44,265 nucleotides of DNA from a virus (taxonomy: Duplodnaviria > Heunggongvirae > Uroviricota > Caudoviricetes): positions 1-44,265 of the IMG/VR virus record IMGVR_UViG_2877973648_000002; one strand, 5' to 3'. Shown one piece after another: positions 4,601-40,958 of the stretch. Position 1 is the stretch's first letter; the number at the start of each line of letters is the position of its first letter. Under the pieces are notes generated by a model, which saw only the letters and a program-made list of their open reading frames with translations, was not told the DNA's origin and made no database searches. Both the position numbers and the translations under genes were made by a program.

Positions 4601-5086
4601 TATCGCGTCCTCAACAATGAATTTTGTGATGCAGTGCCTGGTGCCTCCAAGTGACGTTAACCAGTTAACAATTAACGTCGGATACAGAGAATCCACCCAT
4701 AACACTGTTTTTGGTTTTAACTGTTCCGCGTGCGCTTAGCCGCATTCACCGCATCACAAAATTCACTTTAAAAACGGCGGCAGAGCAGTCACGGAGTAAA
4801 ACTGATACCGCCAAACGTCACCAGAAAATTGATAACAGAGGGCGTTGCAGCGGGGTTGTCACTTAAGCGTATGGTCAACCTGACAACTCGGTGTCCTCAA
4901 CGGGGAAGGAATAACCCCGCCATACTTACCGCCGCGCCATTTTGCGGGTTGCCACAACCGGAAGCGCACGGTCGAATTAAATTTAACGACACCGTACAGT
5001 GAGACGAACTTCGCCGTGCGCTTTCGTGTTGTGTGCCTGCTTTTAACCACGTCAGGCGAGGTGGTATCCTTAAAATCACCACAGTT

Positions 5087-5663: not shown

Positions 5664-5819
5664 TCACTCACCTGAGTTTCTTTCCAGCCAGCGACGGGCA
5701 CCATTTTCGGTTTTAAACGTTTTGCTTTTGGTATACGTCATCGCGGTGAACGTGCCGTCCTGGTTGGGGAACACGCCACATACCAGAGATTCGCTGTTGC
5801 CAAGATCGATAGTATCCAT
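5664..5819 (-). CDS. Small protein, YdaF-like
   Basis: 51-aa ORF MDTIDLGNSESLVCGVFPNQDGTF... with GAGG RBS; recalled similarity to Rac YdaF. Confidence 0.5.
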   Translation of the reverse strand: MDTIDLGNSESLVCGVFPNQDGTFTAMTYTKSKTFKTENGARRWLERNSGE

Positions 5820-5932
5820 GCTGACCTCATTTCCCCTTAACGCCGGGGTAGCGGAACTGTTTGCTGAGAACACCGTGCGGTGTCTTGATGGAAAGTAATT
5901 TAGAATAACCTAACATAAGAGGCAAGTGTTTT

Positions 5933-8934: not shown

Positions 8935-10422
8935 GTGGACATTAGAGACTGGCTACCAGAATTTCAAGTTTCAGCAGAAACAGATCGGGACTTACAGACC
9001 TATTTTTTTAAGCTACCGGCGATAAAGGATATTATTGAAAGTAGGGCTTGGTTGGTTCTTGGAAGAAAAGGTACTGGTAAAACAGCCATTTATGAACACC
9101 TTAGAAGAGGAAAACCAGCCAATCTCAACGGGTTTTACTCAGTATGTCTAAATTTTAGTGACTATCCATGGCCAGCCCATCAACTTTACAAGGATGCAAT
9201 GGCTGGAGAACTTTCCGCTTATCAAAAAAGTTGGATGTATCTTTTTTATATTAAGGCATTATCTAAACTTATTGAAATAAAAAATGATGCTGGAGAGACT
9301 TTAAACAAAGATCTAACGTGGGCACATAATTATATCAAAACTATCTTTGGTAGTCCCGACCCAACTCTTAGGGAGGTTTTGTTTTCAAAAATAACCAGAT
9401 TAAAAACCATAAAAGGGCCCAGTGCTGGTCTTAATGAAGTATCATTGGACGCAGGTGAAATTTCGTTAGAGGAAGTTGCTGAGAATGCTCAGCTAAAGCA
9501 AAAGCTAAGAGCTAATGCTTTCACATTGCTTACGTATTTTGAAAAAATTTTTAAAGATAACATTGGTAATGAAAAAATAATTATCGCCCTTGACCAATTA
9601 GACGAAAACTGGCTAGAGGGGCAAATTGAAGAATATAGTAAGGTTTTAATAAATCTGCTAAATGTCTGTAGAAACATAGCATCTGATGAACGCCTCAATG
9701 ATAAATTAAAAGTCATTCCCTTCCTACGAACGGATATTTATCATTCTTTGAAATTCAATGATAAAAACAAATTATTGCAAGATAGTGCTATCATAATCTC
9801 ATGGAATGAAAATAATCTAAACGATATGTATTATGAGAGGATAAAGAAATACAAACCTAATGATCTCATATTAGATGACGAAAAGGACAGATCTGGGAAA
9901 GTATTTGAGGTTTCATTCGTTAGGCAGGGGACTCCTCCATTTAAATATATATGTCGCCGTTCTTTCTTTAGGCCTAGGGATATTATTGTCTACTTCAACA
10001 AAATTAGGGCATGTCATAAAAATAATGTCTCAGGTCTTTACACTTCCAATGAGCTTTATGAAGCTGACCGTGAAGCATCTATAAGTGTGTACAATGAGGT
10101 GATTGATGAATGGTCCAACCAATTCCCTGAAATTGAGAACTTACTAACTGTTCTTCAAACTATCCAAGTAGAAACATTCGATTTTAATGATTTTTCCGAG
10201 AAGTGCCGTAATGAATTTGCAGGTATTTCTGATGGGGTGATACGTCAATATATCAACTTCCTGTTTGATAACTCACTTATCGGACAAAAAAAACAAGGTA
10301 GATGGGAATACGTAAGTAGTTTGCCTAACTTAAAAATTAATCTACAAAATGAGTTTAGGACACATCATGCTTTAAAATACAGGTTGCATTTAATAGAAAG
10401 CAGACCGAGCCAAAATATTTAG
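8935..10422 (+). CDS. P-loop NTPase of unknown function (candidate anti-phage defence or abortive-infection gene)
   Basis: 495-aa ORF, GTG start after GAGGA; Walker A LVLGRKGTGKTA near residue 40; Walker B-like IIALDQLDE near residue 215; ~270-aa C-terminal region without recognisable motif; gene and flanks visibly A+T-rich relative to neighbours. Confidence 0.7.
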   Translation: MDIRDWLPEFQVSAETDRDLQTYFFKLPAIKDIIESRAWLVLGRKGTGKTAIYEHLRRGKPANLNGFYSVCLNFSDYPWPAHQLYKDAMAGELSAYQKSWMYLFYIKALSKLIEIKNDAGETLNKDLTWAHNYIKTIFGSPDPTLREVLFSKITRLKTIKGPSAGLNEVSLDAGEISLEEVAENAQLKQKLRANAFTLLTYFEKIFKDNIGNEKIIIALDQLDENWLEGQIEEYSKVLINLLNVCRNIASDERLNDKLKVIPFLRTDIYHSLKFNDKNKLLQDSAIIISWNENNLNDMYYERIKKYKPNDLILDDEKDRSGKVFEVSFVRQGTPPFKYICRRSFFRPRDIIVYFNKIRACHKNNVSGLYTSNELYEADREASISVYNEVIDEWSNQFPEIENLLTVLQTIQVETFDFNDFSEKCRNEFAGISDGVIRQYINFLFDNSLIGQKKQGRWEYVSSLPNLKINLQNEFRTHHALKYRLHLIESRPSQNI

Positions 10423-10499: not shown

Positions 10500-10694
10500 T
10501 AACGGTAGTTAAGTAGAATGGCTGCGGGTGCTTGAGGCTATCTGCCTCGGGCATGAACACCAAGGGCAGATAGAGAAAAGCCCCAGTTAACATTACGCGT
10601 CCTGCAAGACGCTTAACATTAATCTGAGGCCAATTTCATGCTAGACACATGTAGGTTAGCCTCTTACGTGCCGAAAGGCAAGGAGAAGCAGGCT
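10500..10694. promoter_or_regulatory. hok/sok-type leader region (hok mRNA 5' UTR, mok overlap, antisense Sok target)
   Basis: Segments GCTTGAGGCTATCTGCCTC and TAGCCTCTTAC match recalled conserved elements of hok mRNA leaders; lies directly upstream of the hok start. Confidence 0.45.
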
Positions 10695-10781
10695 ATGAAG
10701 CAGCAAAAGGCGATGTTAATCGCCCTGATCGTCATCTGTTTAACCGTCATAGTGACGGCACTGGTAACGAGGAAAGACTGA
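10695..10781 (+). pseudogene. hokD: Hok-family type I toxin gene (HokD/RelF-like), truncated after codon 28 by IS3
   Basis: Translation MKQQKAMLIALIVICLTVIVTALVTRKD then TGA supplied by the first bases of IS3; matches recalled HokD/RelF N-terminus. Confidence 0.6.
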
Positions 10782-10808: not shown

Positions 10809-11675
10809 CTAAGCGAGGTTCTGGTTTTCAAATTGTTCCGGACTGAGGCCGCCACACCAACTGTGCCGCCGCCACCGATTGTAATCACATTCGATATAAT
10901 TAAATACCGTTGCCCGCATTATTTCCCGGCTGATAAAGTGTTCTCCATGGATACATTCCACTTTCAGCGAATGAAAGAAGCTTTCCACGCAGGCATTATC
11001 GTAGCAGCAACCTTTTGCGCTCATACTTCCACGCAGATTATGCCGCTTCAGTTGCGCCTGATAATCTGCTGAACAGTACTGGCCTCCACGGTCCGTGTGA
11101 ACGATAACGTTCCGGGGCCTCTTACGCCGCCACAGCGCCATCTGCAGGGCATCGCAGGCCAGTTGCGCCGTCATGCGTGGCGACATTGACCAGCCAATAA
11201 CGGCACGTGACCACAGGTCAATGACCACTGCCAGATACAGCCAGCCTTCATCTGTACGTAAGTACGTGATGTCTCCTGCCCACTTCTGGTTCGGGCCACT
11301 GGCGTAAAAATCCTGCTCCAACAGATTTTCTGACACAGGCAGGCCGTGTGCGCGGTAGCTGACCGGGCTGAACTTCCGGGAGGCCTTTGCCCTCAGTCCC
11401 TGACGGCGCAGGCTTGCCGCCACGGTTTTTACGTTAAAGGGGTAACCCTGAGCACGCAGTTCATCCGTCAGGCGTGGGGCACCGTAACGCTGTTTTGACC
11501 GGGTAAAAGCCGCGAGGACAACGCTGTCGCAGTGTTGGCGGAACTGCTGACGCGTGCTTATCCTTGTCCGCCGCTGACACCACGTATACCAGCCGCTGCG
11601 GGCCACCCGGAGCACGCGGCACATTGCTTTGATGCTGAACTCAGCCTGATGTTTTTCAATAAAGACATACTTCAT
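10809..11675 (-). CDS. insF: IS3 transposase OrfB (DDE integrase domain)
   Basis: 288-aa ORF matching recalled IS3 InsF ([32 protein letters not shown]...). Confidence 0.95.
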
Positions 11676-12036: not shown

Positions 12037-12273
12037 CCTGCAATGACCCCGCTGATGCTGGACACATCCACCCGTAAGCTGGTTGCGTGGGATGGCACCA
12101 CCGACGGTGCTGCCGTTGGCATTCTTGCGGTTGCTGCTGACCAGACCAGCACCACACTGACGTTCTACAAGTCCGGCACGTTCCGTTATGAGGATGTGCT
12201 CTGGCCGGAGGCTGCCAGCGACGAGACGAAAAAACGGACCGCGTTTGCCGGAACGGCAATCAGCATCGTTTAA
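12037..12273 (+). pseudogene. D: Head decoration protein D, 3' fragment beginning at the IS3 junction
   Basis: Translation from the IS3 boundary [78 protein letters not shown] matches recalled C-terminus of lambda gpD. Confidence 0.85.
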
Positions 12274-12328: not shown

Positions 12329-12604
12329 ATGTCGATGTACACAACCGCCCAGCTGCTGGCGGCAAATGAGCAGAAATTTAAGTTTGATCCGCTGTTTCTG
12401 CGTCTCTTTTTCCGTGAGAGCTATCCCTTCACTACGGAGAAAGTCTATCTCTCACAAATTCCGGGACTGGTAAACATGGCGCTGTACGTTTCGCCGATTG
12501 TTTCCGGTGAGGTTATCCGTTCCCGTGGCGGCTCCACCTCTGAATTTACGCCGGGATATGTCAAACCCAAGCACTTAGCATGGCTTTCTGAGGCTTTCGT
12601 GTAG
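12329..12604 (+). pseudogene. E: Major capsid protein E, 5' fragment interrupted by island insertion
   Basis: MSMYTTAQLLAANEQKFKFDPLFLRLFFRESYPF...GYVKPKH matches recalled lambda gpE N-terminus, then 9 unrelated codons (LAWLSEAFV) and stop. Confidence 0.85.
12564..12573. repeat. attL core (AACCCAAGCA) of the island, within E codons K-P-K-H
   Basis: Identical 10-mer at 23488-23497 at the other junction. Confidence 0.7.
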
Positions 12605-12736
12605 TTGCTGGTTTTTACACTTAATCTTTTGATAATAAAGAATAAGTTTATCTGGCGCTTTCACTGGATTTTCCTCGTTATCTGTGTGTTGCAATCATCT
12701 CTGTATTGCAGCTTGTATTGCTTTTTGGGGCTAAAA

Positions 12737-14270: not shown

Positions 14271-14807
14271 TTATAAGAGATTAAATCCAAATAAAGAGTA
14301 ATCATATACAGGGGTGCATTGCATCCCACTGAATATGCTGATGTTTTTTTCTGTTTCTATCCTTTTTTCAATAAGTTGTTGTATATTTTTACAGTACAAT
14401 TTGTGTGTGATGTTATTATCGTAAGCCTGATATAGCAACGTCAATGTTGACGCTAGGAAACATACAGATAAAATTAAAATAATATATGCAGTTTTTTTAT
14501 TTTTTGTCCATGATCTATTTGTTTGTGAAATATAAAGAATTCTGAGGTGGATAATGGTGAGAGACAATAGCAGGCCACTCAATAAAATAAGTATTGGGTT
14601 TGCGTATTTTATTAATGGTTGAGAGAAAAAAACTATTATAGCTCCTGTGACTGCGTATGAGAAAAAGGAGTGATTAAACTTCTTACTCCTTCTCTCAAGT
14701 ATTTTAATTTCATCTTGTGTGGGGGTTTTAGATGCCTCTAATATAAGTTTATTGAATGTTTCTGTTATCTTGTTTTTTGTGTTTGTGGCTATTTTTTTTA
14801 GATTCAT
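14271..14807 (-). CDS. Hypothetical integral membrane protein (A+T-rich cargo gene)
   Basis: 178-aa ORF with about three hydrophobic helices; strongly A+T-rich; convergent to int-alpA. Confidence 0.5.
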   Translation of the reverse strand: MNLKKIATNTKNKITETFNKLILEASKTPTQDEIKILERRSKKFNHSFFSYAVTGAIIVFFSQPLIKYANPILILLSGLLLSLTIIHLRILYISQTNRSWTKNKKTAYIILILSVCFLASTLTLLYQAYDNNITHKLYCKNIQQLIEKRIETEKNISIFSGMQCTPVYDYSLFGFNLL

Positions 14808-18358: not shown

Positions 18359-18364
18359 ACTTAT

Positions 18365-18601
18365 GGAATAACTGTTCACCACTGTTCACCCTGTCATAAA
18401 TATCTTTTATATCAGTATATTATAGGGTGAACAGTTATTTATGAACTGTTCACCAAACTATTCACTGTTCACCTTTTTGATTGTTTATTGAGCTTCAAGG
18501 GTGAACAGTGGTGAACAGTTGGTGAATAGTTTTTGTGAAACTGTTCACCCATTAACATTATGAATTAAAAGAGAAAATATCAAAAGGTGAACAGGTGAAG
18601 G
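18365..18601. repeat. Iteron cluster / putative replication origin of the island
   Basis: About 10 copies of CTGTTCACC / GGTGAACAG in both orientations, including tandem pairs, flanking an A+T-rich spacer. Confidence 0.7.
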
Positions 18602-20957: not shown

Positions 20958-21341
20958 ATGCAGAATGATTACAATGACCTTAAGCCAATTGCCGAAATGA
21001 TGTACCCGAATCAAGCTGTAGAGGAATTAAAAGCTATCGCTGACAAAATGTGTTTAAGCGAGCGCCTTGTTGATATGAATCAGGTGATGGAAATTACAAC
21101 CCTGAGTCGTCGTACACTGCTAAACCTTGAGGCTAGTGGAGAGTTCCCGGAGCGTGTGCAGGTTACGGAAGGGCGTAAGGCCTGGTATTTAAGTGAAGTG
21201 ATCGACTGGATAAATAATATTCCTCGCGCTTCTGAATATTGCCGCGTACCTGTCCCAAAAAAGCCAGATGCGGCGCTATGCCTCAAGATTGAGCGTGTAC
21301 GCCGCAATGCACGGGATGGTCGCTATAAGCTGATTGGTTGA
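20958..21341 (+). CDS. AlpA-like HTH protein (second copy)
   Basis: 127-aa ORF; central segment MNQVMEITTLSRRTLLNLEASGEFPERVQVTEGRKAWYLSEVIDWI resembles the AlpA/phage-regulator HTH. Confidence 0.5.
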   Translation: MQNDYNDLKPIAEMMYPNQAVEELKAIADKMCLSERLVDMNQVMEITTLSRRTLLNLEASGEFPERVQVTEGRKAWYLSEVIDWINNIPRASEYCRVPVPKKPDAALCLKIERVRRNARDGRYKLIG

Positions 21342-21583
21342 TGAAATTAGGGCCCGCTCTGGCTGGCGGGTCCTTTCCGGCGATCCAGAACGTTACGGGG
21401 CGTCAGGCGCGCAGATTCTTGCTATTTATGACAATTTTCTGCGATTTGCCGTTTCTGTTCTTCTTCGTTGTAACTATATGTTATTAATGGAAATGCCACC
21501 TAAAAAGAAAGGAAATGGTAAGCGCTATTTTGAGCTAAAAACAGCTTAACCGTTTCCTTTCTCCAAAATTTACTGAGGCGGCT

Positions 21584-22009
21584 ATGAATCCATGCGCAGA
21601 AGTCATGACAACTATCAAACTAAGCGGATCTTTAGCTTCTTTGTTCGCCAGAGAACATCAGCGCCTTATCGGTCCGACGCGTGAGGCATTAAGGGTATTA
21701 TCAGCCACTATTCCGGGATTTGAGAAATTCATGAACACTAGCAAGGCTTGAGGACTCACTTTCGCCGTGTTTGTGGATAAAAATAATGTCGCGCAGGATG
21801 ATCTCGATTTTCCAAATGGTGGTCGTACGATTCGAATTGTTCCGATCATTATGGGGAGTAAGCGTGCTGGTGTTCTGCAAACCATTCTTGGCGCTTTCTT
21901 GGTGGTTGGTGGTGTTCTGGGGGCAACGATAGGGCAAGCATGGAGCGGTGGTGTGTGGAGCGGCAAGTATTTTCTATTGGCAGAAGCCCATTCCGCCAAG
22001 ATAGGCTAG
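21584..22009 (+). pseudogene. Tail assembly protein I-like gene, interrupted by stop/frameshift
   Basis: 21584-21751 encodes MNPCAEVMTTIKLSGSLASLFAREHQRLIGPTREALRVLSATIPGF... (parallels the lambda gpI N-terminus) then stop; homology resumes in another frame at 21767-22009 (TIRIVPIIMGSKRAGVLQTILGAFLVVGG). Confidence 0.45.
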
Positions 22010-22104: not shown

Positions 22105-22791
22105 ATGGCCGGACAATTAGACGAAGCAGCAAAACAGATTTTGGGTACCTTACTGGCAGATTTTACAGATCGAGGGTTAACTGCACAGGATTTAAAAAAT
22201 GGTTATGAAGGCCCGAACATCAATGCGCTAGCTACTGCAGTATGCAACGTCGCTGATTTTACATCTGTAGATTTTGAAGTTGCCTTTGGCGATCTCGAAA
22301 AAAGCAAACTAATCAAAACTGGCCCCATGAAAATGTTCGATAATGATCACAATAGCTCTGTGATCATTATTGCTTCTTATAGCCTACGTGAATATGTTTA
22401 TTTGACGGAGGCTGGATACAAGGAGTCCAGGAAAGTACCAAATCGCCCACAACGTGTTCAGCGTATAGTCAATAATCTAACGATCACCGGCGGACATTTC
22501 AGCAATACGCAATTAGGGCAGGGAGAGGTCGTTTCCCAAACCCAAAACATCACAAGCAGTTCCGATTCTGAAATAGTTGCTAAGCTGATTTCTATCATTG
22601 AAGAACAGGGGCAAGTAGTTAACAGCGATCAACGTTCTGATATTGAAGCAGCTGTGGCAGCCGCTAATGAAGGTGATGGTAAAGAAGCGAAATCATTGCT
22701 GTCTAAAGTATGCGGTCCTGTTTGGGAGTCTGTGCAACCAGTAATATGGCCGATCATTGGTGAGTTGGTTAAGAAAGGGCTCGGGATTTAA
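22105..22791 (+). CDS. Hypothetical protein (island cargo)
   Basis: 228 aa from the ATG at 22105 with AAGG RBS; no recognisable motif; A+T-rich. Confidence 0.5.
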   Translation: MAGQLDEAAKQILGTLLADFTDRGLTAQDLKNGYEGPNINALATAVCNVADFTSVDFEVAFGDLEKSKLIKTGPMKMFDNDHNSSVIIIASYSLREYVYLTEAGYKESRKVPNRPQRVQRIVNNLTITGGHFSNTQLGQGEVVSQTQNITSSSDSEIVAKLISIIEEQGQVVNSDQRSDIEAAVAAANEGDGKEAKSLLSKVCGPVWESVQPVIWPIIGELVKKGLGI

Positions 22792-22983
22792 TTTAATAAA
22801 TTCTAAAAGGGCTGTTTGGGTAGTATTTTTATGGGGCTCTTCAATTAAAAGGAGTCATAGGGTCAAACGATGTGCCTATGACTCCTGGATAAAGCCATCA
22901 GAGAATATTAGTGTTAACAATTTCTCTTCAGCCCTTGTTTATACGATGCCAGCTTCAGAACCGAATCAACGCTCATGCGATCT

Positions 22984-23271
22984 TTAGCATCTCGGTAATG
23001 ACAGTAAGTTATTATTCCATCGACCATCAGCATAAGTACGTATAAATTTCCGCCCTCCCCCTCCTGGATCAACGACACCTACATCAGCACGTTTGCCATA
23101 ACTATCAGTGACATAGAAAGTATGTAACTTGTTCTCAATTGAATTAACTACATCTGCCACAGTCCACTTACTTCCAGGGGGATTAAATTGAGGGCTTCCC
23201 ACATGAGTAATGTGTTCATGAAGGGCGTTCGAACTGGAGAGAGTAATACAAGTTAATCGTACATCAACCAT
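22984..23271 (-). CDS. Hypothetical small protein (island cargo)
   Basis: 95 aa from the ATG at 23271 with AAGGAG RBS; glycine-rich loop DPGGGGRK; convergent with the 228-aa gene. Confidence 0.45.
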   Translation of the reverse strand: MVDVRLTCITLSSSNALHEHITHVGSPQFNPPGSKWTVADVVNSIENKLHTFYVTDSYGKRADVGVVDPGGGGRKFIRTYADGRWNNNLLSLPRC

Positions 23272-23487
23272 CTTCAACTCCTTATTTACTGTGAAAAATC
23301 ATAAGATACAGCATGTATCGAAATACAGCAGGGTGAACAATTTCGATTTACGAGGACTTAGCAAAGTCTCTTTCTCTTAAACTGAGGGCTTGTATTGCAG
23401 GTTGTATTGCAACTGTAGCTAAGCAATATCAGTTGTAAGCTTTATTTCTTTTACAGTCAATCGTATAGCATCGTATTTGACTCATGT

Positions 23488-23497
23488 AACCCAAGCA
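23488..23497. repeat. attR core (AACCCAAGCA) of the island
   Basis: Identical to 12564-12573; E coding sequence continues immediately after. Confidence 0.7.
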
Positions 23498-24278
23498 TGA
23501 GGTGAATCCGCAGATGACCCTGCGTCGCCTGCCGGATGAAGATCCGCAGAATCTGGCGGACCCGGCTTACCGCCGCCGTCGCATCATCATGCAGAACATG
23601 CGTGACGAAGAGCTGGCCATTGCTCAGGTCGAAGAGATGCAGGCAGTTTCTGCCGTGCTCAAGGGCAAATACACCATGACCGGTGAAGCCTTCGATCCGG
23701 TTGAGGTGGATATGGGCCGCAGTGCGGCGAACAACATCACACAGTCCGGCGTCACGGAGTGGAGCAAGCGTGACAAGTCCACGTATGACCCGACCGACGA
23801 TATCGAAGCCTACGCGCTGAACGCCAGCGGTGTGGTGAATATCATCGTGTTTGACCCGAAAGGCTGGGCGCTGTTCCGTTCCTTCAAAGCCGTCAGGGAG
23901 AAGCTGGATACCCGTCGCGGCTCTCATTCCGAGCTGGAGACAGCGGTGAAAGACCTGGGCAAAGCGGTGTCCTATAAGGGAATGTATGGCGATGTGGCCA
24001 TCGTCGTGTATTCCGGACAGTACGTGGAAAACGGCGTCAAAAAGAACTTCCTGCCGGACAACACGATGGTGCTGGGGAACACTCAGGCTCGCGGTCTGCG
24101 CACCTATGGCTGCATTCAGGATGCGGATGCATTGAGTGAGGGTATTAATGCGTCTCCCCGTTATCCGAAAAACTGGAAGACATCCGGCGATCCGGCGCGA
24201 GAGTTCACCATGATTCAGTCAGCACCGCTGATGCTGCTGGCTGATCCTGATGAGTTCGTGTCCGTTCAACTGGCGTAA
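23490..24278 (+). pseudogene. E: Major capsid protein E, 3' fragment
   Basis: From the attR repeat the frame reads PKHEVNPQMTLRRLPDEDPQNLADPAYRRRRIIMQNMRDEELAIAQVEEMQ... to ...ADPDEFVSVQLA, matching recalled lambda gpE residues ~80-341; a stop lies immediately upstream in frame. Confidence 0.85.
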
Positions 24279-31268: not shown

Positions 31269-32012
31269 ATGACACAGACAGAATCAGCGATTCTGGCGCA
31301 CGCCCGGCGATGTGCGCCAGCGGAGTCGTGCGGCTTCGTGGTAAGCACGCCGGAGGGGGAAAGATATTTCCCCTGCGTGAATATCTCCGGTGAGCCGGAG
31401 GCGTATTTCCGTATGTCGCCGGAAGACTGGCTGCAGGCAGAAATGCAGGGTGAGATTGTGGCGCTGGTCCACAGCCACCCCGGTGGTCTGCCCTGGCTGA
31501 GTGAGGCCGACCGGCGGCTGCAGGTGCAGAGTGATTTGCCGTGGTGGCTGGTCTGCCGGGGGACGATTCATAAGTTCCGCTGTGTGCCGCATCTCACCGG
31601 GCGGCGCTTTGAGCACGGTGTGACGGACTGTTACACACTGTTCCGGGATGCTTATCATCTGGCGGGGATTGAGATGCCGGACTTTCATCGTGAGGATGAC
31701 TGGTGGCGTAACGGCCAGAATCTCTATCTGGATAATCTGGAGGCGACGGGGCTGTATCAGGTGCCGTTGTCAGCGGCACAGCCGGGCGATGTGCTGCTGT
31801 GCTGTTTTGGTTCATCGGTGCCGAATCACGCCGCAATTTACTGCGGCGACGGCGAGCTGCTGCACCATATTCCTGAACAACTGAGCAAACGAGAGAGGTA
31901 CACCGACAAATGGCAGCGACGCACACACTCCCTCTGGCGTCACCGGGCATGGCGCGCATCTGCCTTTACGGGGATTTACAACGATTTGGTCGCCGCATCG
32001 ACCTTCGTGTGA
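31269..32012 (+). CDS. K: Tail tip assembly protein K (JAB/MPN plus NlpC/P60-like)
   Basis: Contains the HSHP...SEAD JAMM-like motif and downstream Cys/His; lambda K is usually annotated from the internal Met (MSPEDWLQ...), so the true start may be 31413. Confidence 0.75.
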   Translation: MTQTESAILAHARRCAPAESCGFVVSTPEGERYFPCVNISGEPEAYFRMSPEDWLQAEMQGEIVALVHSHPGGLPWLSEADRRLQVQSDLPWWLVCRGTIHKFRCVPHLTGRRFEHGVTDCYTLFRDAYHLAGIEMPDFHREDDWWRNGQNLYLDNLEATGLYQVPLSAAQPGDVLLCCFGSSVPNHAAIYCGDGELLHHIPEQLSKRERYTDKWQRRTHSLWRHRAWRASAFTGIYNDLVAASTFV

Positions 32013-32581
32013 AAACGGGGGCTGAAGCCATCCGGGCACTGGCCACACAGCTCCCGGCGTTTCGTCAGAAACTGAGCGACGGCTGGTATCAGGTACGGAT
32101 TGCCGGGCGGGACGTCAGCACGTCCGGGTTAACGGCGCAGTTACATGAGACTCTGCCTGATGGCGCTGTGATTCATATTGTTCCCAGAGTCGCCGGGGCC
32201 AAGTCAGGTGGCGTATTCCAGATTGTCCTGGGGGCTGCCGCCATTGCCGGATCATTCTTTACCGCCGGAGCCACCCTTGCAGCATGGGGGGCAGCCATTG
32301 GGGCCGGTGGTATGACCGGCATCCTGTTTTCTCTCGGTGCCAGTATGGTGCTCGGTGGTGTGGCGCAGATGCTGGCACCGAAAGCCAGAACTCCCCGTAC
32401 ACAGACAACGGATAACGGTAAGCAGAACACCTATTTCTCCTCACTGGATAACATGGTTGCCCAGGGCAATGTTCTGCCTGTTCTGTACGGGGAAATGCGC
32501 GTGGGGTCACGCGTGGTTTCTCAGGAGATCAGCACGGCAGACGAAGGGGGCGGTGGTCAGGTTGTGGTGATTGGTCGCTGA
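31910..32581 (+). CDS. I: Tail tip assembly protein I
   Basis: 223-aa ORF MAATHTLPLASPGMARICLYGDLQRFGRRIDLRVKTGAEAIRALATQL... matches recalled lambda gpI. Confidence 0.85.
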   Translation: MAATHTLPLASPGMARICLYGDLQRFGRRIDLRVKTGAEAIRALATQLPAFRQKLSDGWYQVRIAGRDVSTSGLTAQLHETLPDGAVIHIVPRVAGAKSGGVFQIVLGAAAIAGSFFTAGATLAAWGAAIGAGGMTGILFSLGASMVLGGVAQMLAPKARTPRTQTTDNGKQNTYFSSLDNMVAQGNVLPVLYGEMRVGSRVVSQEISTADEGGGGQVVVIGR

Positions 32582-40383: not shown

Positions 40384-40958
40384 TGGCATTCAGAATGAGT
40401 GAACAACCACGGACCATAAAAATTTATAATCTGCTGGCCGGAACTAATGAATTTATTGGTGAAGGTGATGCATATATTCCGCCTCATACAGGTCTGCCAG
40501 CAAACAGTACCGATATTGCACCGCCAGATATTCCGGCAGGCTTCGTGGCTGTTTTCAACAGTGATGAGTCATCGTGGCATCTCGTTGAAGATCATCGGGG
40601 TAAAACGGTTTATGACGTGGCTTCCGGCGACGCGTTATTTATTTCTGAACTCGGTCCGTTACCGGAAAATGTTACCTGGTTATCGCCGGAAGGAGAGTTT
40701 CAGAAGTGGAACGGCACAGCCTGGGTGAAGGATACGGAAGCAGAAAAACTGTTCCGGATCCGGGAGGCGGAAGAAATAAAAAACAACCTGATGCAGGTAG
40801 CCAGTGAGCATATTGCGCCGCTTCAGGATGCTGCAGATCTGGAAATTGCAACGGAGGAAGAAATCTCGTTGCTGGAAGCATGGAAAAAGTATCGGGTATT
40901 GCTGAACCGTGTTGATACGTCAACTTCACAGGATATTGAATGGCCAGCACTGCCGTAG
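40383..40958 (+). CDS. tfa: Tail fiber assembly protein
   Basis: 191-aa [51 protein letters not shown]... matches recalled TfaR/TfaQ. Confidence 0.85.

Follow-up and report, generated by a model that had tools for sequence, protein, structure and literature searches.

Two convergent genes in the variable 3' slot of a helper-embedded PICI as separately mobile defence candidates

The DNA analysed here, which we call the window, is a stretch of 44,265 nucleotides (IMG/VR record IMGVR_UViG_2877973648_000002) carrying a lambdoid prophage whose lambda-E-like capsid gene is interrupted at about codon 80 by an island, as can be seen both in the window and in the annotation of GF131, where the island is identical. 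A 10-bp direct repeat, AACCCAAGCA, is present at both capsid/island junctions. At the attR end of the island, where the first-pass annotation had located them, lie the two genes under study, gene A and gene B, which converge across a 192-bp spacer. The coordinates of these and the other features are collected in Table 1.

Table 1. Features of the island, its cargo slot and its flanks (positions in the window)
Feature	Position	Strand	Remarks
sok RNA, hok/sok type	10526-10700		left of 12037
IS3-family transposase	10809-11675	-	rve domains; left of 12037
Capsid gene, 5' fragment	12330-12575		split by the island
attL core, AACCCAAGCA	12566-12575	+	read from sequence; 5' capsid fragment stops here; arrangement identical in GF131
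TGTATTGCAGGTTGTATTGC, copy near attL	12702-12721		repeat family D3
AlpA-family gene	20958-21341	+	Pfam Phage_AlpA, E 7.5e-9; last fully conserved gene left of the cargo slot
Strain-specific accessory (cargo) segment	21527-23473		bounded by blastn comparison with six sister islands
Decayed, truncated lambda gpI-like (tail assembly protein I) gene	21584-22009	+	in-frame TGA at 21749-21751
Gene A	22105-22791	+	ATG, 228 aa; ORF listing and RefSeq
Hairpin, 12-bp stem	22850-22886		between A and B; T-run after it on the minus strand
Gene B	23271-22984	-	ATG, 95 aa; ORF listing and RefSeq
Arm upstream of B, attR-proximal	23272-23488		35.5% GC
TGTATTGCAGGTTGTATTGC	23391-23410		repeat family D3
attR core, AACCCAAGCA	23489-23498	+	read from sequence; capsid reading frame restarts at about 23499
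Capsid gene, 3' fragment	23502-24278		ORF listing

Our sequence comparisons confirm that A and B are both real genes. The pair of convergent reading frames originally described is borne out by the ORF listing and by the RefSeq annotation of the identical GF131 segment, which names the product of A a 'hypothetical protein' and that of B a 'DUF3892 domain-containing protein'; a literature search found no mention of WP_000918608 or WP_021540094. Full-length homologues form 157 clusters for A and 96 for B, with identities down to about 45-55%, and relative to homologues in other elements both genes have dN/dS values of 0.09-0.14 at saturated synonymous sites, indicating purifying selection. The two genes had also been called A+T-rich. 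With GC contents of 43.1% (A) and 41.7% (B) they do lie well below the flanking prophage at 57.1%, but the difference from the conserved part of the island, at 44.7%, is modest.

The hairpin in the spacer folds with calculated energies of -22.3 kcal/mol on the plus strand and -21.1 kcal/mol on the minus strand (ViennaRNA), and we predict it to be the probable terminator of gene B. A simple terminator scan left it unflagged, a consensus scan for promoters and terminators gave fewer matches than expected from shuffled sequence, and an Rfam search of the whole window returned no match in the A/B region. A further inverted repeat lies inside the coding sequence of A at 22338-22372 (14-bp stem, 13 Watson-Crick pairs and one G-T pair, dG -16.5 kcal/mol); conservation of this repeat is partial in the Klebsiella homologues and absent from the P2-like and Oxalobacter ones, and it is probably a chance occurrence.

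Comparison with sister islands delimits the slot in which the two genes reside. Blastn similarity to six such islands ends at 21431-21526 and, in the five that share the att site, is found again from 23474-23477 onward, roughly 12 bp short of the att core. The strain-specific segment therefore spans about 1.95 kb rather than the roughly 1.4 kb first assigned to this end of the island, and it holds a gpI-like remnant in addition to A and B. Six kinds of content were found in this slot among 11 sampled islands. The window and GF131 have the gpI remnant with A and B, which carried no PADLOC/Pfam entry in this survey of alleles. HY220605 and 14EC020 have a 64-aa ORF with HEPN and DUF262 genes (NsnA, 6e-59; PD-T4-2_A, 2e-38; PD-T4-2_B, 2e-4), while AHB30, PK8275 and K56-43-un have a Nu1-like gene, a 91-aa ORF and an Abi_C protein (AbiJ, 2e-21). 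A TIR-DUF3298 protein occupies the slot in IAI39 (Aga-type TIR, 1.6e-17) and a 438-aa protein with no PADLOC or Pfam match does so in OW968288; in NDM4, F374 and FDAARGOS_1262, whose islands sit at other att sites, only a Nu1-like gene and a small ORF are present in an otherwise empty slot. Near-identical islands thus differ precisely here, and other alleles are defence genes that PADLOC recognises, in keeping with the original proposal of variable cargo at the attR-proximal end. The comparison among strains that had been suggested as a check has in this way returned differing rather than invariant slot content. In complete E. coli genomes the module of decoration and AlpA genes occurs in 419 of 5426, and the A+B segment in 16 of 5426, all copies being at least 99.8% identical.

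Since the slot varies between conserved flanks and has alleles recognised by PADLOC, we consider it, as judged by these alignments, to be a variable defence hotspot of the PICI 3' end. According to He et al. (PMC11364771), the immune systems of PICIs are encoded at either the 5' or the 3' end. In the anti-phage hotspots of PICIs and of P4 and P2 elements, in so far as they are represented by Fillol-Salom 2022, as cited in PMC11364771, and by Rousset 2022 (PMC9122126), a short locus of high turnover lies between anchors. The same is seen here, with the AlpA/late module and attR as anchors and recognised defence systems as the other alleles. Unlike the systems of those hotspots, A and B match no described system. 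The P2 hotspot of Rousset et al. (PMC9122126) is adjacent to cos, whereas in P2-like prophages gene A occupies the interval between gpD and ogr.

The remnant that precedes gene A was resolved with the gpI encoded in the window itself (31910-32581) as tblastn query. A single frame, read through the stop, aligns with residues 14-133 of that gpI (E 2e-8) at about 30% identity, and the remnant is truncated after residue 133 or so. The two small ORFs 5' of gene A are thus pieces of a single gpI-like gene, which also matches the tail assembly protein phrog_32 (E 1.9e-12) and has the look of a late gene that was captured into the PICI late zone and has since decayed. On the other side of the slot, the stretch 23383-23497, which lies 5' of B and runs into the att core, is 72% identical to a stretch upstream of a Salmonella DUF3892-FRG operon (contigs L015-L019, about 5774-5915), and this operon adjoins a Nu1-like gene. 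The similarity suggests either that B travelled with the right-end arm of a PICI or that the Salmonella locus is itself a PICI remnant.

The island as a whole belongs to a known kind. In GF131, whose island is identical, RefSeq annotates an integrase, AlpA, a dynamic zone, DUF4222, primase and SSB; the island further encodes a lambda-E-like capsid protein of its own, a decoration protein and a second AlpA, and from this sequence we classify it as a helper-embedded PICI of type E:Phage_cap_E:80. The helper-embedded PICIs of Tommasini, Mageeney & Williams 2023 (PMC10111431) share its layout of integrase, AlpA, dynamic zone, primase-SSB and a late zone with cap_E and decoration genes, and likewise its insertion in, and co-orientation with, a lambda-E cognate at about codon 80. 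That paper does not discuss 3' defence cargo, which is present here, and, unlike the helpers it describes, the one in the window is truncated left of 12037. The first-pass annotation had spoken of P4-like satellites as well as of PICIs; the latter term stands, with the island embedded in its helper, while the former does not, since the psu-delta-sid module (Psu, Delta, Sid) is absent from the annotation of the identical GF131 island, which has its own cap_E-type capsid and decoration genes instead. The match between the window and the intact GF131 helper prophage begins only at 12037, so that in this helper terminase, portal and protease are missing, as is the greater part of the decoration gene. 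The satellite would then be stranded in a defective prophage.

Gene B scores 52.4 bits with the profile of Pfam family PF13031 (DUF3892), for which the gathering cut-off is 22.3 (E 7.7e-14; profile positions 3-71 of 71), and 94 of its 96 homologues are precomputed as PF13031. Its AF2 model has a pLDDT of 88.4 and is mostly beta with one helix. No significantly similar structure was found for it among solved and viral predicted structures, and a single-sequence PDB search gave nothing meaningful. Searched as a profile against PDB, B retrieved designed Kelch-repeat proteins only, with no single stretch passing, and we take this to be a repeat artefact. The original statement that neither gene has a recognisable motif thus fails for B and holds for A, which by sequence matches nothing in Pfam, PADLOC or PDB; put differently, the homology and structure searches that were then recommended have yielded a Pfam family for B, a winged-helix fold for the N-terminal domain of A and no meaningful PDB sequence match for either gene. 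The invariant residues of B are C8, H23, G25, G65, D82 and C95, to which may be added an HEHITHVG motif, and the Cys/His set can reasonably be regarded as a putative metal or redox site. The glycine loop DPGGGGRK, singled out at the beginning as a feature of this gene, is indeed present at residues 68-75 but proves to be a non-conserved turn, reading DPGNGRRK, RPNDGR.P and otherwise in homologues; on account of this variation we rejected a P-loop reading of the GGGG.

B-like DNA is found in 55 complete E. coli genomes, comprising the 16 A+B segments and 39 plasmids, mostly of about 95-100 kb. Without A, it occurs on P1-like plasmids; in Salmonella upstream of an FRG protein (PADLOC PDC-S15); accompanied by NA37 and a 475-aa gene, in a lambdoid moron region; at the head of small operons that lie opposite a small-ORF(HTH)/M78-peptidase module and adjoin Wadjet or type I R-M; and next to AIPR. 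A common partner for B was sought and rejected, the downstream neighbours in five contexts being mutually unrelated. DUF3892 was predicted to be an immune-system component by Burroughs & Aravind 2020, as relayed in bioRxiv 10.1101/2022.04.27.489752, the preprint that also describes operons of DUF3892 proteins only, under CapH/CapP regulators; fusions of DUF3892 to Min-Wnt effectors have been reported, with a dsRBD/HPF-like fold proposed (bioRxiv 10.1101/2025.01.14.632903). As to a role of DUF3892 in defence, the literature holds predictions only. B fits the family model over its full length and has homologues in defence neighbourhoods, including the HTH/M78-peptidase operons. It differs from other DUF3892 proteins in that it stands alone here, with neither a co-directional partner nor a fused effector.

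The AlphaFold2 model of A (mean pLDDT 72) has three parts. The N-terminal domain (residues 1-110 or thereabouts) is alpha/beta with a pLDDT of 75-87 and shows a winged-helix fold. A Gly-rich linker, ISGGxF...QLGxGE, follows at about residues 117-151; it is modelled with low confidence and is conserved in sequence, with I127, G129, G130, F132, Q136, G140 and Q145 invariant. The C-terminal module (residues 153-225) consists of three helices, the last of which carries the conserved motif FG..AWG(V/I)(L/I)TAII.K..G(L/M); a transmembrane anchor at this end was rejected, the hydropathy being too low. While the fold is that of MarR-type winged-helix regulators, no Pfam HTH family, MarR included, was matched by any of 42 A-family members, for which Pfam gave noise only, and DNA binding by A is only putative. 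Single-sequence and profile searches of PDB likewise gave no sequence match. The UniRef label 'AbiTii domain-containing' on one homologue (P0079) was not reproduced, and a PADLOC search linked A to none of the Abi models, AbiJ and AbiT included.

An exhaustive profile search extends the A family to 176 representative clusters. In some of these the N-terminal domain is kept and the remainder is swapped, for GGDEF (P0295), for TIR (P0296) or for cytidine deaminase (P0300, P0288), and in P0287 the A-type domain is joined to an N-terminal DUF4062/PDC-S60-like part. The TIR fusion is PDC-S66/ThsB-like and adjoins a 1074-aa SIR2-pAgo gene. Among complete E. coli genomes 17 have A-like DNA, namely the 16 A+B segments and one P2-like prophage. 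Apart from B, the gene is found in P2-like prophages between gpD and ogr; as the last gene both of a capsid-forming PICI in Yersinia and of a cap_E-type PICI in Klebsiella, the latter beside mug-rpoD; beside rpoD in Oxalobacter; and in E. fergusonii within an integrase islet, where it faces a bSEFIR-like TIR gene in convergent orientation. Contigs of this last type (L051-L053, 6001-7776) have a 57%-identical A in a convergent geometry like that of A and B, with the bSEFIR-like TIR gene as a different partner. A, or satellites carrying it, recurs beside mug-rpoD-dnaG in Klebsiella, Yersinia and Oxalobacter (L020-L024, L046, L048, L009-L012), and an E. coli sister PICI without A lies at tRNA-Ile, in the same place as the mug-rpoD-dnaG site, which points to this neighbourhood as a widely used satellite attachment site.

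Searches against defence collections returned nothing for either gene. PADLOC-DB v2.0.0 (5027 models) was searched with A, B and the two small ORFs that precede A, and none of the four had a match at E ≤ 1; distant members of the A family had no PADLOC match either. By tblastn, neither A nor B had a match at E ≤ 1e-3 in 50,697 INPHARED phage records, where the presence of phi80 was unconfirmed, so that A is not a detectable Tai homologue. The Tai systems (He et al. 2024, PMC11364771) are nevertheless a useful comparison, being single genes that Enterobacterales, Pectobacterium among them, carry in the hotspots of PICIs, P4 and prophage morons, a setting like the present one; moreover, at discovery they were absent from PADLOC and DefenseFinder, as A and B are from PADLOC. 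The differences are that these searches related neither A nor B to the Tai genes borne by phages, phi80 orf63 (TaiEcA) for instance, or to TaiPect, and that Tai genes in PICIs adjoin pri, whereas A and B lie at the 3' end. A resembles more generally the single-protein sensor-effector genes of the Abi type, in which a wHTH or other sensor is joined to TIR or deaminase: its relatives combine the winged helix with TIR, cytidine deaminase or GGDEF, and A too is a one-gene cassette in mobile-element hotspots. What sets it apart from those defence genes is the small helical module in the effector position.

How should two such genes, side by side, be understood? The first-pass annotation had treated them as a pair, and one could imagine a single two-gene system, a toxin-antitoxin or a sensor plus effector, that works only when both are present. 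All 16 E. coli genomes with this allele have them side by side in this slot, but the near identity of the 16 copies implies a single event. One further A-like and 39 further B-like genes in complete E. coli genomes lack the partner, in ten other contexts across genera A and B are never neighbours, and the two converge on a strong hairpin. The co-occurrence and co-orientation across lineages expected of a two-gene operon or TA-like system is thus found neither in the E. coli genomes nor in the ten other contexts, and we give this alternative very little credence. The contexts show instead that A and B arrived independently, as separate cassettes. The genes might also serve the life cycle of the satellite, through helper interference or control of late genes or packaging, with A, for example, a DNA-binding regulator of late promoters in helper or island and B a modulator of virion assembly. 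Their place in what PMC10111431 calls the 'Late zone' of the PICI, beside a captured gpI-like fragment, the DNA-binding-type fold of A, and its position directly 3' of packaging genes (Nu1-like, TerL) in Klebsiella and Yersinia are all consistent with such a role. We nonetheless consider it unlikely: both genes are missing from most sister islands with the same core and att site; A has further homes in myovirus prophages of the P2 type, in a cf-PICI whose capsid is of HK97 type and in a non-phage islet with an integrase; B is also found on P1-like plasmids and in defence islands; and these settings have no one helper machinery in common.

Another possibility is that A, B or both act against immunity, B for instance as a small inhibitor or sponge. 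Phage-plasmids, morons and satellites are typical homes of anti-defence genes, and the 95-aa B stands alone on P1-like phage-plasmids, in lambdoid moron regions and in satellites. However, DUF3892 genes head chromosomal defence-island operons under CapH/CapP-like HTH/M78 regulators (bioRxiv 10.1101/2022.04.27.489752) and are reported to be fused to Min-Wnt effector domains (10.1101/2025.01.14.632903), a pattern that an immune component fits better than an inhibitor does, while the N-terminal domain of A is fused to TIR and deaminase effectors. A counter-defence role therefore appears doubtful to us. Finally, the genes could have no part in phage conflict and be morons with a host-adaptive or regulatory role, or they could be selfish cargo that confers no phenotype. 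Neither protein has a visible catalytic motif, and hotspots also carry non-defence genes; against this, both genes are under strong purifying selection across genera and recur at hotspot positions beside recognised defence genes, and we regard such a role, too, as rather improbable. To the reading of A and B as two independent defence genes in a satellite hotspot we would assign about an even chance, with a defence function likely by association. For A the argument by association comes from the pattern of one module with many effectors, taken together with the hotspot positions.

Under the reading of A and B as separate defence candidates, this allele of the PICI 3' hotspot consists of a decayed captured gpI-like gene and two unrelated single-gene cassettes, transcribed separately toward a shared hairpin, and A and B would be expressed from the integrated satellite and so protect the lysogen. 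Most likely A would be a one-protein conflict factor, directed against phages or against mobile elements, that is both sensor and effector. Its winged-helix N-terminal domain would bind a nucleic-acid or protein cue, and the response would be delivered by the Gly-rich linker and the helical C-terminal module of about 80 aa, where relatives carry TIR, cytidine deaminase or GGDEF, perhaps via oligomerisation or via the weakly hydrophobic terminal helix. B would work by itself, whether as a small sensor, a small effector or a modulator, its family having earlier been predicted to sense RNA or ribosomes in immune operons.

What might be new in this? The hotspot and the island are of known kinds and B belongs to a catalogued family, while A represents an unnamed family with no Pfam model. 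More tentatively, and with the odds in our judgement somewhat against it, A may found a new family of single-protein immune sensors, in which a winged-helix sensor module is coupled to interchangeable effectors (in A the small helical module, which would kill or block) and which P2-like prophages and satellites of at least three kinds have disseminated, with B a self-sufficient, bare DUF3892 protein (Cys/His metal site) acting as an immune or counter-immune factor. Satellite hotspots have proved to be a source of new anti-phage systems, and this one offers two compact, easily cloned candidates, which should be treated singly and not as one system. A is the more valuable of the two, as a phenotype, if found, would define a new sensor module and a new small effector; B, if active, would provide the first functional handle on DUF3892.

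Some minor features of the window may be added. Within the island, direct and inverted repeats bearing AACTGTTCACC cluster at 18361-18549, just 3' of the primase gene, and are probably a candidate satellite replication origin (iterons). The 5' accessory slot, which follows int-AlpA, contains a 178-aa ORF at 14271-14807 on the minus strand, in a patch of 33% GC. This ORF has no PADLOC match and only weak Pfam matches, to membrane-protein families; in sister islands the 5' slot holds an AbiC/AbiP-like protein or a PDC-S35 TIR protein, and we regard the ORF as a candidate for a third piece of cargo. The early/nin area of the prophage contains a 495-aa ORF (8935-10422, plus strand, 34.5% GC) with no Pfam match and a weak PADLOC match to PDC-M28C (4e-5), which may be a prophage moron. 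Rfam matches to DicF RNA and IS009 RNA lie at 4775-4826 on the minus strand and 40726-40924 on the plus strand; these RNAs are typical of defective lambdoid prophage regions of the Qin/DLP12 type.
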